Sequence record: OR437326.1
Length of the DNA: 64,000 bases
Origin: Escherichia phage iGC_PHA_EC001
Direction: 5' to 3' (one strand)
Part shown: positions 3,142-43,637 of the stretch, one piece after another
Position numbering within the stretch: position 1 is the stretch's first letter
How the letters are laid out: each line of letters begins with the position of its first letter
Notes under the pieces: generated by a model
The model's input: only the letters and a program-made list of their open reading frames with translations
Databases searched by the model: none
Told to the model about the DNA's origin: nothing
Made by a program: the position numbers and the translations under genes

Positions 3142-4083
3142 TTAATAACCTCCTTCAAAAGGCTTAACTACATGTTGATTAGCTTTAAAACGTTCAACAT
3201 AGTCGTTTTCGCCCATGTTTTCATATAGCTTAGTAACAACATAAAAGTTTTCCCAAGCATATTCCCTAAACCAACCACTAGTGATGGATGTGCAGACTTT
3301 AGATAAAGCCATTATAAAACTTTGCTTAGGGGTTGGACCTCCGATCTCTTCACCGAAAGGAATTTGTGAACGTTCCAAAGCCAAAACACACGCTTCTTCA
3401 TAAACACCTAACAGGCGCACATGTTTTGGTTGAGCAAAAAACTTTTCTTTGCTGGTCATAACTTCACTTCCATCTTTCATATAAGATTTATATGCTGGAG
3501 CATCCATTACCGCGATTGCTTCATGGATAGAATCATGATCATAAACATACGGAACCTCATCCCCTTTAAAGAAGTCTTTACTTTTTACGTTTAAGTTCGG
3601 ATGAGAGTAAGTGTATGTTTCTTTCTCACGCAACTCATAAATACTCTTAAGATTTTCTGGGATCTTTGCACCCAGTGACCGCATGAAATGAATATCTTTC
3701 ATAGTTTTAAAGAAGTGAGGACTATCCTTTTTAAAACGATGACTCATTTTAAGAAGGTAGAGCACATCTAAAGGAGCAACAACATGTCCAGCGTAAGTTC
3801 GACGAACATCATCAGAATCTTCACAATAGCTAATCAAAGCTTCTGTGCTATCTCCTTGAGAAGCAATATCGTATTCCAAATGTGCACCAGCTATCATTTT
3901 GACATGGCCTTTGTTTCCTTTACGTTCTACAAGTTCAACAAACTCCTCTTGAGAGAACATTTTTGATAATTCTTCCCACTCTTGTTCTGTACACAGGTAA
4001 TCTAAATCTACACAAGGGCGATACAAGTCTTTTCCCATGTCCATAGCATGAATTTGCAATGCACGGCTACCAATTAACACCAT
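3142..4083 (-). CDS. hypothetical protein with possible Pol-beta-type nucleotidyltransferase fold
   Basis: N-terminal LIGSRALQIH...CVDLDYL fits hG[GS]...DxD minimal nucleotidyltransferase signature; 313 aa; GAGGAG RBS. Confidence 0.45.
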   Translation of the reverse strand: MVLIGSRALQIHAMDMGKDLYRPCVDLDYLCTEQEWEELSKMFSQEEFVELVERKGNKGHVKMIAGAHLEYDIASQGDSTEALISYCEDSDDVRRTYAGHVVAPLDVLYLLKMSHRFKKDSPHFFKTMKDIHFMRSLGAKIPENLKSIYELREKETYTYSHPNLNVKSKDFFKGDEVPYVYDHDSIHEAIAVMDAPAYKSYMKDGSEVMTSKEKFFAQPKHVRLLGVYEEACVLALERSQIPFGEEIGGPTPKQSFIMALSKVCTSITSGWFREYAWENFYVVTKLYENMGENDYVERFKANQHVVKPFEGGY

Positions 4084-4107
4084 AATATTTCTCCTCTATT
4101 GGTTGAT

Positions 4108-4142
4108 AGGTTAAGTTTATCAAGCTTCCAGATTCCTGTCAA
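4108..4142 (-). promoter_or_regulatory. putative sigma70-like promoter for leftward transcription
   Basis: minus strand TTGACA - 17 nt - TAAACT upstream of RBS of gene 3142-4083. Confidence 0.4.
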
Positions 4143-4149
4143 TAAAAAA

Positions 4150-4163
4150 CCCGCCGAAGCGGG
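4150..4163 (-). terminator. GC hairpin CCCGCCGAAGCGGG with flanking A/T runs, putative (possibly bidirectional) terminator
   Basis: palindromic stem, T-run on minus strand, A-run on plus strand. Confidence 0.5.
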
Positions 4164-4173
4164 TTATTATTTA

Positions 4174-4446
4174 CTAACACATTGAGGAAGAAGAGATCCA
4201 AACACCTCTTGTGGTTAAACCATTTTCATCCAACTCTACACCATAATCTTCACAAATGAAATCAATATAGTGATCTGCGGCTGGCGTTCCTGTAGGGTAA
4301 TAAGTTTCTCCGTTACCGTAGTCACCTATCCAAGCTTGTTCCTGAAACTGTTCACAAAGTTCTTCAATTTCCTTACGAAACTTTCTTTGTGCTTGTTCCA
4401 TCTCTTTAACTTTCTTTTTTATCAGCAGTTCGCCTTCAGACTCCAC
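4174..4446 (-). CDS. small acidic protein, paralog family member A (C-terminal W-I-SSSS-M-C)
   Basis: GTG start with AAGGAGAG RBS; C-terminus GVWISSSSMC shared with two neighbouring ORFs. Confidence 0.5.
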   Translation of the reverse strand: MESEGELLIKKKVKEMEQAQRKFRKEIEELCEQFQEQAWIGDYGNGETYYPTGTPAADHYIDFICEDYGVELDENGLTTRGVWISSSSMC

Positions 4447-4455
4447 AATCTCTCC

Positions 4456-4674
4456 TTAACAGCTACTACTGTGCCAAACGCCTTGAGAATTAACGACGAA
4501 ACCATCATCACCTTCACCATAACAAGAAGAGGATTGCCAATCTTCAAAACAGATTGCGTCATCTTCTAAACTAAGACCAAAACCAGCATCTTCAGCTTCT
4601 TTTGTAAGTTCGTCCACTAAAGCCATAATAGCTTGGGCTTTTTCAGTTAATTCTTCAACATTACGATAACTCAT
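4456..4674 (-). CDS. small acidic protein, paralog family member B (two W-x-SSS-C motifs)
   Basis: start at MSYRNVEEL after GAGGAGAAATACTA RBS; internal WQSSSC and C-terminal WHSSSC. Confidence 0.5.
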   Translation of the reverse strand: MSYRNVEELTEKAQAIMALVDELTKEAEDAGFGLSLEDDAICFEDWQSSSCYGEGDDGFVVNSQGVWHSSSC

Positions 4675-4943
4675 TAGTATTTCTCCTCTGGTTGGAAAAC
4701 GGAACGACAGGCCCACATAGAAGCTTCTTTCAACTTAGTCTTTGCTATTGAAATTTGGTCAAGGCGGGTGGATATATTGGTAGACTCTTCCAAATCTTCA
4801 CAATCATCCAGTTCAGTCCACAATTCAGACATTAGAGCATCAAAGATTAAGCCTAATCGAACTTCAGCATCTTTAATAGCATTCACTTTACCAATTTTGT
4901 CATCGGTATGCGGTTTATAACCTTTGATATCTTCGATTCCCAC
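4674..4943 (-). CDS. hypothetical protein
   Basis: ORF track 4674-4982; preferred start GTG after AGGAGGTAAA RBS, which avoids overlap with upstream gene. Confidence 0.4.
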   Translation of the reverse strand: MGIEDIKGYKPHTDDKIGKVNAIKDAEVRLGLIFDALMSELWTELDDCEDLEESTNISTRLDQISIAKTKLKEASMWACRSVFQPEEKY

Positions 4944-10091: not shown

Positions 10092-10136
10092 TATTAATCT
10101 CCTATGTTTAAGAAATGCCCCCGAAGGGGCAGTTTG

Positions 10137-10829
10137 TTAAATAGCGGTTCCTTCGAAATCCGCCACATTTACGAGATTAATATTTTCAGATTTAGAAGTC
10201 AAGTTGTTTTCTGCAACAGATTTTTCTTCAGTATCCGCCTCGTTACCTGCCACGTTACGAGGTTCTTCTTCACCGTAGGGATTACCGAATTTCAAAAGAT
10301 TGATCAATTCTTCTTTGGAGAAGTTTTCTAAATCATCATCTGTTAATTCAATAATCTCGTCTTGTTCTTCAATAAATGTTTCACCACCAGAAAAAGCATC
10401 TCGCTTTTTAGCTACTTCCATAGCTTGTTCTGGTGTTGCCCCTGCATCAAGAGCAGCTAAAGCAAAATCTGACCCACTCCCTACTGCATAATATTCTTCA
10501 TCAATCGGATATGCACGTGTTGGGTTGTTACCCTCGTGCAGGAAAATACGTCCGTCTGGATGAACAACAAGTGCAATAAACTCTTCATCTTCTTTGTCTG
10601 GATCAGAGTGAATCATCAAACCAGGGACAGCATCACGTGCTGCTTCGCACTGTAGATTTTGTTCAAACCATTGAAAGAAAGAAAGCACGGAGGTCAGACG
10701 ACCAGCACCACCTACAAGGTAATCTCCAATTTTTCGGACCTTTTTGAAATTAATAGAATCTACACGTCCACCAAAAGTTACCTTACCGTCACTCAAAATC
10801 TTATTTTTGGTTGCAATAATTGTCGTCAC
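10137..10829 (-). CDS. HslV-like Ntn-hydrolase peptidase with long acidic C-terminal extension
   Basis: GTG start giving N-terminal TTIIATKNK (catalytic Thr after Met removal); FKKVRKIGDYLVGGAGRLTSVLSFFQWFEQ aligns by eye with E. coli HslV [38 protein letters not shown] RBS. Confidence 0.6.
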   Translation of the reverse strand: MTTIIATKNKILSDGKVTFGGRVDSINFKKVRKIGDYLVGGAGRLTSVLSFFQWFEQNLQCEAARDAVPGLMIHSDPDKEDEEFIALVVHPDGRIFLHEGNNPTRAYPIDEEYYAVGSGSDFALAALDAGATPEQAMEVAKKRDAFSGGETFIEEQDEIIELTDDDLENFSKEELINLLKFGNPYGEEEPRNVAGNEADTEEKSVAENNLTSKSENINLVNVADFEGTAI

Positions 10830-11329
10830 TATTCTTCCTCCTCTGTTAATGTTTTAAGAACCGCTTTCCCGCCATTCACATATTTGCAGATGTATTCTAT
10901 CGCACGTAGTGTTTCTTTGTCAACAAAAATTTGATCAGACGTTGCGAGCGGGTTATTAAGAAGATCACTGCAATCACGAACAAGCAGTGCTTTCTTATTA
11001 AACAAATTACTTAAGAACAGTAACTTCGCCTCTTCTTCTGTTATGTGCAGAAGGCTAGGATCGGAGCCAGCTATTCCTATTATACAATCAAACAAGCTTT
11101 CTTTACTATCAGAAAGTTCTTGAAAATGGTTTAAAAGCCAATCTTCTCCTAGACACCAACATTTAAACATTTCCAGTTTATCTCGGAGGGTCATATTCTC
11201 TAAAGTAAGAGCAATCTCTTTTTCAATATGGTTTACACAAATTTGACGAAATTCGTTAGGTTTTACGAGTCCCGTTTGATAGCACTCATCTATACCGCTT
11301 CTTCCGATAGCTATTGTTGCTACACCCAT
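10829..11329 (-). CDS. hypothetical protein
   Basis: RBS AAGGAGG; 166 aa. Confidence 0.5.
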   Translation of the reverse strand: MGVATIAIGRSGIDECYQTGLVKPNEFRQICVNHIEKEIALTLENMTLRDKLEMFKCWCLGEDWLLNHFQELSDSKESLFDCIIGIAGSDPSLLHITEEEAKLLFLSNLFNKKALLVRDCSDLLNNPLATSDQIFVDKETLRAIEYICKYVNGGKAVLKTLTEEEE

Positions 11330-43157: not shown

Positions 43158-43637
43158 ATGGAACTCAATAAAGATACACTGTGGGAACTCTTCAAAACCT
43201 TCGCTGGTTTTAAAGAGAATTCTGAATCCCAACAAGATTCTATACCATCTCAAAAACCTGAAACTCTAGTCAAACAAAATAAATTTGATGAAGAAAAGAT
43301 GCAGGTTATTGAGGTCTTGTATTGTCCACCTGAAGAAGACGATCTCCACGGAGAGCGCATGTCTGATTTGGAAATCAGGAAGATGGTTGACAACTTCAAT
43401 GAGAATATTACCAACATTAGTGGTAATCTTGGTCACATGAAGAACACCGATAAGTTTTCTCCAATTAAAGCTTGGGTAAATGAAGTCGATTGTTACATTG
43501 GTGACGAACTCGTTGTGGAAGGAACTCCCCTCGTTAAAATCCAATTCAACGACCCTGAATTATATCAAGCTCGTAAAGACGGCGTTCTTAAAGGTTTGAG
43601 TATAGGCGCAATGGGCGTTAAAGTCAAGAAGGACTAA
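43158..43637 (+). CDS. head morphogenesis protein (function uncertain; possible prohead protease/processing factor)
   Basis: 159 aa between portal and scaffold genes; RBS AAGAGG. Confidence 0.4.
   Translation: MELNKDTLWELFKTFAGFKENSESQQDSIPSQKPETLVKQNKFDEEKMQVIEVLYCPPEEDDLHGERMSDLEIRKMVDNFNENITNISGNLGHMKNTDKFSPIKAWVNEVDCYIGDELVVEGTPLVKIQFNDPELYQARKDGVLKGLSIGAMGVKVKKD

Follow-up and report, generated by a model that had tools for sequence, protein, structure and literature searches.

Phages that carry 'HslV without HslU' were noted earlier (PMC7823757), and the phage proteasome homologs (PPH), which are phage-borne proteins of ~140 aa lacking H2 (that is, the second apical helix), have been described in PMC8665760. 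In that description, some of the newly found proteasome homologs may not form stacked rings, the C-termini of these homologs mostly point outward from the presumed rings and might offer sites for interaction, and the homologs are functionally diverse, with connectase as a protein-ligating member (PMC8665760). The literature that we searched yielded no experimental work on phage HslV/PPH members, and the record consists of this bioinformatic description (PMC8665760) and genome notes. RPC proteins have, by description, a PPH-like core without H2 and a further C-terminal region of unknown structure; they are reported from Proteobacteria only, not from phages, and are more divergent. BPH of Thiobacillus (PDB 5ovs/5ovt) is a bacterial ring protease of the proteasome-like type for which no ATPase partner is known and in which both apical helices are kept and an acidic tail is absent.

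Bacterial HslV (ClpQ) is the peptidase component of the HslUV protease. In Escherichia coli it starts with MTTI, and its formyl-methionine is removed by methionine aminopeptidase, for which threonine is a permitted second residue; HslV alone is a poor protease. Lys28 of E. coli HslV binds the carboxylate of HslU. The C-terminus of HslU, with the sequence EDLSRFIL, enters a pocket between HslV subunits that is lined by F54, F57, A79, K80 and Q114 (PMC6429459).

Here we analyse a phage gene of this kind in a window of 64,000 nucleotides (that is, the whole stretch of DNA that was analysed) from Escherichia phage iGC_PHA_EC001 (OR437326.1). Because the gene has been recorded before, together with its family name and its lack of HslU (RefSeq, PHROG 1040, PMC8665760 and PMC7823757), the original observation adds little. 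The additions of the present analysis are the failed tests for a true HslV, the two-part organization of the C-terminal tail, a conserved neighbour (gp174) that is not a subunit, and a natural deletion.

Identity and distribution of the gene

The window belongs to a phAPEC8-like Phapecoctavirus (Stephanstirmvirinae) and is, over 6 kb, 99.5% identical to Escherichia phage Mt1B1_P17 and 99.3% identical to phAPEC8. The gene corresponds to phAPEC8 gp175 (G377_gp175, YP_007348462.1), for which RefSeq uses the name "peptidase HslV family"; elsewhere it is entered as "ATP-dependent protease subunit HslV", as "putative proteasome component" or simply as "hypothetical protein". The features of the locus are as follows.

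10137–10829, minus strand: coding sequence of an HslV/proteasome-like (putatively PPH-type) Ntn peptidase, 230 aa, GTG start, TAA stop at 10137–10139
10365–10829, minus strand: catalytic core, residues 1–155, with MTTI start, Asp14, Lys30 and Gly-Ser-Gly at 117–119
10275–10364, minus strand: conserved tail module, residues 156–185 (…IIELTDDDLENFSKEELINLLKFGNPY), with two short predicted helices at 164–169 and 172–181 (pLDDT 92–94)
10140–10274, minus strand: variable acidic end, residues 186–230, predicted to be disordered (pLDDT 45–56), 11 D/E versus 3 K/R
10829–11329, minus strand: gp174, 166 aa, PHROG 14834 (function unknown), the upstream gene, whose stop overlaps the peptidase GTG
10837–10842, minus strand: Shine–Dalgarno sequence AGGAGG, 7 nt 5' of the GTG
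10106–10131, minus strand: terminator-like hairpin TGCCCC-TTCG-GGGGCA (10116–10131) followed by TTTCTTAAAC, a consensus match only
10894–10923, minus strand: sigma-70-like promoter match TTGACA-18-TAGAAT (11/12), a consensus match only

The open reading frame with a GTG start that had been picked out at 10137–10829 in the earlier note is a real gene, preceded by an AGGAGG ribosome-binding site and located on the minus strand, which had not been stated there. The GTG is the earliest possible start past an in-frame stop and, because no further in-frame Met occurs before residue 72, it is also the sole start that preserves the N-terminal MTTI. In one GenBank record (P0023) the gene is started at Met72, which yields a 159-aa protein without the catalytic N-terminus. 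The GTG shares bases with the TAG stop of the preceding open reading frame (TAGTG), a type of stop/start overlap that is usual in translational coupling. Downstream, the terminator-like hairpin begins 5 nt past the peptidase stop (z = -3.1 for a 61-nt stretch). The sigma-70-like match lies ~65 nt before the GTG, within the 3' end of gp174, and belongs to a class that is not significant as a whole (13 sites in the region versus 9.4 expected).

Conservation in related phages had been proposed as a check for this gene, and tblastn recovered homologs in 233 phage records, including phages of Escherichia, Klebsiella, Vibrio, Aeromonas, Caulobacter (the phiCbK group), Rhizobium and Rhodobacter. Among predicted viral structures, Foldseek returned 47 proteasome-like viral proteins (E<=1e-3), some of them from jumbo phages, and from these two counts together we conclude that proteasome-like genes are common in large phages. 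With HMMER, an exhaustive search through 1.84 billion representatives gave 2334 relatives of the peptidase at E<=1e-3. The nearest ~55 clusters comprise proteins of 183–350 aa with alignments that reach about residue 180, and the next tier contains many proteins of 135–160 aa that score 56–75 bits.

Family, fold and active site

The protein matches PHROG 1040 ('peptidase HslV family') with E=1.6e-63, residues 1–229 aligning with profile positions 14–247 of 277; given this span, the PHROG profile already takes in the tail. The Pfam family PF00227 is matched at 25.6 bits (gathering cutoff 22.4), and phmmer against PDB sequences retrieved the HslV proteins of Thermotoga maritima (E=4.9e-9) and E. 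coli (2.5e-5). The alignment with E. coli HslV runs from residue 1 to residue 1 and covers the N-terminal 145 residues of the phage protein, in agreement with the by-eye alignment of the earlier note. Sequence comparison thus places homology to the HslV/proteasome superfamily far above chance.

An AlphaFold2 model of the monomer, built on 53 homologs (pLDDT 86, pTM 0.72), has the alpha-beta-beta-alpha sandwich fold. A Foldseek comparison of the model with the PDB ranks HslV, BPH and 20S beta subunits highest (E 1e-10 to 1e-8; target-normalised TM 0.55–0.69). BPH is therefore among the top structural matches, whereas its sequence match to the phage protein is marginal (E about 1). The modelled core contains helix H1 (45–67), helices at 120–128 and 133–143, and a last strand at 151–155. 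Where HslV has H2, the model has an acidic, Pro-containing coil loop (residues 68–84; VPGLMIHSDPDKEDEEF).

Residue numbers used here are those of the precursor (Met = 1), such that T2 is the mature Thr1. In the 53-sequence homolog alignment, T2, T3, I4, D14, K30 and G117-S118-G119 are invariant, and T2, D14, K30 and the G117-S118-G119 motif align with Thr1, Asp17, Lys33 and Gly123-Ser124-Gly125 of E. coli HslV. An MTTI or MTTV start is present in 196 of the 233 relatives collected. The proposal that this is an HslV/proteasome-type protein in which a Thr would be exposed upon Met removal is accordingly borne out by PF00227, PHROG 1040, the fold and the catalytic positions. Both a profile match and the counterparts of Thr1 and Lys33, whose lack had been named in advance as grounds for abandoning that proposal, are present, and the observation stands.

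Comparison with HslV

The phage protein shares with bacterial HslV the fold, the catalytic residues and the MTTI N-terminus, and HslV provides its best PDB matches in both sequence and structure. The protein nevertheless scores far under the curated thresholds for HslV: the NCBI equivalog models NF003964 and TIGR03692 give 32.2 bits (cutoff 137) and 31.4 bits (cutoff 157.75), respectively. The N-terminal hairpin is shorter than that of HslV by 4 residues and, of the two apical helices, H1 is present and H2 is absent in the AlphaFold2 model.

The pocket that receives the HslU tail in HslV is only half recognizable. Its H1-side positions remain hydrophobic (F54 corresponds to L49 and F57 to F52), whereas the H2-side positions are changed to Asp and Pro (A79 corresponds to D76 and K80 to P77); the Q114 column is unreliable. 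The position aligned with K80 is Pro in 36 of the 53 relatives. At the position of E. coli HslV Lys28, the phage protein has Ser, and Lys never occurs there across the family. Further differences from HslV are the lack of an adjacent hslU gene and the additional C-terminal tail. We conclude that the phage peptidase is not a bona fide HslV, as it misses the equivalog cutoffs, has no H2 in its model and seems to have lost half of the HslU-tail pocket.

Comparison with PPH and RPC

With PPH, the protein has in common a missing H2 and no known ATPase partner, in addition to being phage-encoded, beginning at Met-Thr without a propeptide in a group-I proteasome-like core that is compact, and keeping the Thr/Asp/Lys active site. 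Similarity is also higher in this direction, with 56–75 bits to relatives of 135–160 aa versus 26–39 bits to solved HslVs. The proteins of the Caulobacter phage CcrPW and the Rhizobium phage TM30 (139–142 aa, 32–35% identical to the phage peptidase) stop exactly at the point at which the tail of the phage peptidase starts. On the basis of these scores and end points, we interpret the protein as having a PPH-type core that is extended at the C-terminus, a likeness to PPH and RPC that is drawn from their descriptions and from the short relatives.

The phage protein differs from PPH in its length (230 residues against ~140), with the two-helix module and the disordered acidic end as the added parts. 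It also differs from the short forms within the core, in that the loop in place of H2 is longer, such that 42 residues separate the G-x-A-G motif from the next strand, compared with 26–28 in the short forms. RPC proteins are similar by description, in that a PPH-like core without H2 is followed by a further C-terminal region.

The C-terminal tail

Alignments with HslV run out near residue 160 of the phage protein, and the remainder is acidic (22 D/E versus 5 K/R in residues 153–230, pI 4.05). The acidic extension that the earlier note had described as not present in bacterial HslV is therefore real, but it comprises about 75 residues rather than 60. Nor is it uniform: residues 186–230 are variable and predicted to be disordered, whereas the ~30 residues before them are conserved and have a predicted fold (pLDDT 92–94). 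The tail, as newly delineated in this analysis from the alignment and the model, is a conserved, predicted structured module followed by a variable, predicted disordered end.

The module occupies its columns in the 53-homolog alignment at 0.82–0.87, and the AlphaFold2 model has no low-confidence linker at the junction between the core and the module. In diverse relatives its motif is roughly [LI]T.E..E.[ML][ST]KE[EQ]L[LI]..[LI][FT]G, and this is found in Aeromonas phage 2L372D gp211 (37% identity; LTREVAENLSKKELINMM) and in many metagenomic clusters; the module is kept across relatives with only 30–40% identity. By comparison, column occupancy and conservation are low in residues 186–230, in place of which relatives carry unrelated acidic stretches or additional domains that can reach about 200 residues.

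Pfam searches with the tail alone, with seven longer relatives and with two phage homologs gave no match outside the core. A 47-sequence profile of the module likewise failed to match any PDB sequence (best E 0.19) or, in a consistent manner, any Pfam family. A SAP/HeH-like reading of 'L..FSKEELINLL' was considered and set aside as an impression only. We also considered whether the tail imitates the C-terminus of HslU and retained this only as an improbable case, given that the likeness is that of generic amphipathic helices and that the motif lies inside the chain and lacks the basic residue. As a side observation, the module is contiguous with the core, conserved and matches no known domain, none of which speaks against a built-in activator.

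Neighbouring genes and candidate partners

The peptidase gene lies in the nucleotide-metabolism region, on the strand opposite to the structural module, and is part of a conserved block (NrdA-NrdB-glutaredoxin-lysozyme-PhoH-gp174-peptidase) that is syntenic in distant contigs. The lack of HslU in the window, pointed out from the start, extends further: no HslU, ClpX or Lon is annotated in the whole phAPEC8 reference genome. An anti-phage defence library search gave no match.

The gene directly upstream, gp174, is limited to this phage lineage (133 records), in which it and the peptidase gene make up a conserved pair. In distant metagenomic contigs with a peptidase that is 42–47% identical, a gp174 homolog immediately precedes the peptidase gene (hhalign probability 99.7–99.9%), and the peptidase genes of the Aeromonas phage have no gp174 ahead of them. 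Its model is mostly helical (pLDDT 92), and it matches no Pfam, NCBIfam or PADLOC family and no PDB structure (best E 0.16). In Aeromonas phage 2L372D, two PHROG-1040 genes stand side by side. We considered whether gp174 might be a hidden second proteasome-like subunit and rejected this, as BLASTP found no similarity, the model is helical and not proteasome-like, and no PDB match was obtained. What we retain is a conserved neighbour that is possibly a partner, by association only, since the entire block from NrdA to the peptidase is syntenic.

The sole AAA protein of phAPEC8 is gp014 (139005–140144), encoded about 105 kb off and outside the window. It matches the Pfam family AAA (PF00004, 29.9 bits) and PHROG 2376. 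PF00004 covers the classical AAA clade, which includes the proteasomal ATPases. As a dedicated ATPase partner of the peptidase, gp014 was nonetheless rejected on the grounds of distance and a differing phage distribution.

A natural deletion bears on the importance of the gene. Relative to phages that are 99.9% identical, among them ESCO9 and muut, phage VEcB has a 1129-bp deletion that joins the N-terminus of PhoH to peptidase residues ~63–217 and eliminates gp174 as well as the catalytic Thr, Asp and Lys. This suggests that the peptidase gene is dispensable for propagation, if the single deposited VEcB assembly is correct.

Proposed function and alternative explanations

We propose, with a probability of roughly 0.55, that the gene encodes an accessory phage Ntn peptidase that is PPH-like and works without a dedicated unfoldase. 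By analogy with E. coli HslV, the host methionine aminopeptidase would strip the formyl-methionine and leave Thr1 free as the nucleophile, and the protein would assemble into ring oligomers resembling those of HslV and BPH. These oligomers may then cleave peptides, or unfolded or disordered proteins, without a dedicated unfoldase; this independence from an ATPase is an assumption, given how poor a protease HslV is when alone. The two-helix module would be an integral structural part, either as an assembly surface or as a stand-in for the lost H2 side, and the distal acidic tail may serve as a lineage-specific arm that binds partners or substrates. The gene itself would be accessory and not essential.

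A bolder version gives the module the role of the C-terminal helix of HslU, in which case it would dock between subunits or fill the H2 gap and render the ring active without an ATPase, while the distal tails would recruit host targets (for example, regulators or defence proteins) for cleavage; we regard this as a speculative and rather improbable extension. If the proposed accessory peptidase is active, it would be a virus-encoded, self-sufficient proteasome-like protease expressed by many large phages of Proteobacteria together with their nucleotide-metabolism genes. As no member of the phage clade is characterized in the literature searched, biochemistry of this E. coli phage protein would supply the first functional data for the clade, with E. 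coli as the best host for genetics and the tail module as a concrete handle for truncations.

The earlier note had suggested either that the protein recruits host HslU or that it acts as a decoy or modulator of host proteolysis, and our data support neither. In the former case, phage rings would dock E. coli HslU and redirect or boost ATP-dependent degradation during infection. HslU is indeed available in the host and none is annotated in phAPEC8, the alignment with E. coli HslV begins at its first residue and spans the N-terminal 145 residues, and both H1-side pocket positions are hydrophobic (F54 replaced by Leu, F57 kept). This idea is opposed by scores of 32 bits against equivalog cutoffs of 137–158, H2 missing in the model, A79 replaced by Asp and K80 by Pro (Pro in 36 of 53), and Lys28 replaced by Ser at a position that is never Lys in the family; the same divergent surface is shared by homologs in phages of Caulobacter, Rhizobium, Vibrio and Aeromonas. 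We therefore consider a hijack of host HslU unlikely. A passive role, in which the tail or the HslV-like body titrates HslU or basic DNA-binding proteins and proteolysis is unneeded, would make sense of a tail that is strongly acidic (22 D/E versus 5 K/R) and disordered from residue 186, and acidic tails of other phage proteins do mediate protein binding. Yet the catalytic residues are invariant in 53 divergent homologs, which indicates selection on catalysis and argues against a passive decoy, and the distal acidic part that would do the binding is the least conserved region, swapped for unrelated sequence in relatives. Such a role is very unlikely.

Non-proteolytic Ntn chemistry on one target (that is, connectase-like ligation, transpeptidation or amide hydrolysis) would be in line with the functional diversity of proteasome homologs stressed in PMC8665760, which cites connectase, and the loss of H2 together with the C-terminal modules or domains added in relatives would suit a specialized enzyme with a targeting domain. 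However, the proteins matched best in sequence and in structure (HslV, BPH and 20S beta) are all true proteases, the complete set of Thr1, Asp17, Lys33 and Ser-Gly is kept, and no observation indicates a ligase, and we judge this chemistry to be fairly improbable. That the phage AAA ATPase gp014 is the unfoldase partner finds some encouragement in its PF00004 match (29.9 bits) and in its occurrence in all peptidase-bearing Stephanstirmvirinae, but some 105 kb separate the two genes, which fall into different transcription blocks, and the secondary PHROG matches of gp014 are clamp loaders and helicase loaders. Its relatives, moreover, come mainly from phages of Enterococcus, Bacillus, Staphylococcus and Lactococcus, which are absent among the peptidase matches, and the phages of Vibrio, Caulobacter and Rhizobium that are prominent for the peptidase are not so for gp014. 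From the distance and these non-matching phages, we take a dedicated partnership to be highly improbable. Least of all do we expect the protein to be a prohead (that is, head-maturation) protease, an extremely unlikely role that would come to mind for any protease-family gene of a large myovirus. VEcB is viable without the catalytic N-terminus (in the single deposited assembly), and a capsid-maturation role is also opposed by the location of the gene, in a nucleotide-metabolism block on the strand opposite to the head genes, and by the existence of a separate candidate: another gene, located at window 43158–43637 between those for the portal and the scaffold, matches head-maturation-protease PHROGs.

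Upstream gene and start of the peptidase gene

The gene whose stop overlaps the GTG of the peptidase gene, gp174, is always found immediately upstream of the peptidase gene in this phage lineage, and a promoter-like sequence lies within its 3' end:

10829-11329, minus strand, gp174 (PHROG 14834)
10894-10923, minus strand, near-consensus sigma-70 promoter match (TTGACA-18-TAGAAT, 11 of 12 positions)
10827-10829, minus strand, GTG start codon of the peptidase gene

The gp174 product is Cys-rich, with two invariant Cys residues, and its predicted structure is mostly helical and confident (pLDDT 92); no match to it was found in PDB, Pfam, NCBIfam or PADLOC. Judging from its sequence, the promoter-like site could allow host RNA polymerase to transcribe the peptidase gene separately; the record of the related phage phAPEC8 carries no promoter annotation at the corresponding position. 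Start codons other than ATG recur across the peptidase family (that is, GTG here and in gp211 of Aeromonas phage 2L372D, at 4001, and TTG in Rhizobium phage TM30, at 3998, and in gp210 of 2L372D, at 3432, with these three positions counted within the stretch of each phage genome analysed), with ATG used by the Vibrio and Caulobacter phage homologues. Probably because of the GTG start, some GenBank records begin the gene at the internal Met72, which yields a 159-aa product that lacks the active site.

Paired, fused and distant genes in related phages

Aeromonas phage 2L372D encodes two PHROG-1040 (peptidase HslV family) genes side by side (positions within the stretch of its genome analysed):

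3432-3983, gp210, divergent paralogue (183 aa; TTG start, Thr-Cys N-terminus, G-C-G replacing G-S-G)
4001-4885, gp211, tail-bearing orthologue (294 aa; GTG start)

This pair may represent a two-subunit arrangement that is absent from the phage studied here. For a Salmonella jumbo phage, two HslV genes have likewise been reported in the absence of HslU (PMC7823757).

Escherichia phage VEcB lacks 1,129 bp that are present in ESCO9 and muut, two phages 99.9% identical to it. The deletion took out the gp174 homologue and the catalytic Thr, Asp and Lys of the peptidase, and left the N-terminal 112 aa of PhoH fused to what remains of the HslV-like protein, residues ~63-217 (fusion ORF at 1501-2304 of NC_052663.1 19998-23798). 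RefSeq still names this ORF 'peptidase HslV family'.

Outside the window, phAPEC8 encodes a classical-clade AAA ATPase, gp014 (phAPEC8 139005-140144; PF00004, PHROG 2376), which also occurs in SPO1-like, Enterococcus and Staphylococcus phages and in some jumbo phages. Its secondary matches are clamp loaders and helicase loaders; in one record it is named 'FtsH-like protease'.

Annotations and host labels in public records

A further gene lies between the portal and putative scaffold genes:

43158-43637, plus strand, 160-aa candidate prohead protease (phAPEC8 gp117)

RefSeq labels gp117 'DNA methyltransferase'. As the gene matches head-maturation-protease PHROGs (phrog_3017, E = 3e-12), it probably encodes the prohead protease and has been mis-annotated.

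Some records share 99% identity with these E. coli phages across 6 kb although they carry the names 'Campylobacter phage B15/A145/A150' and 'Acinetobacter phage vB_AbaM_ABPW7' (MG065650.1 and OP562383.1 among them), which suggests wrong host labels or contaminated lysates in the public records.
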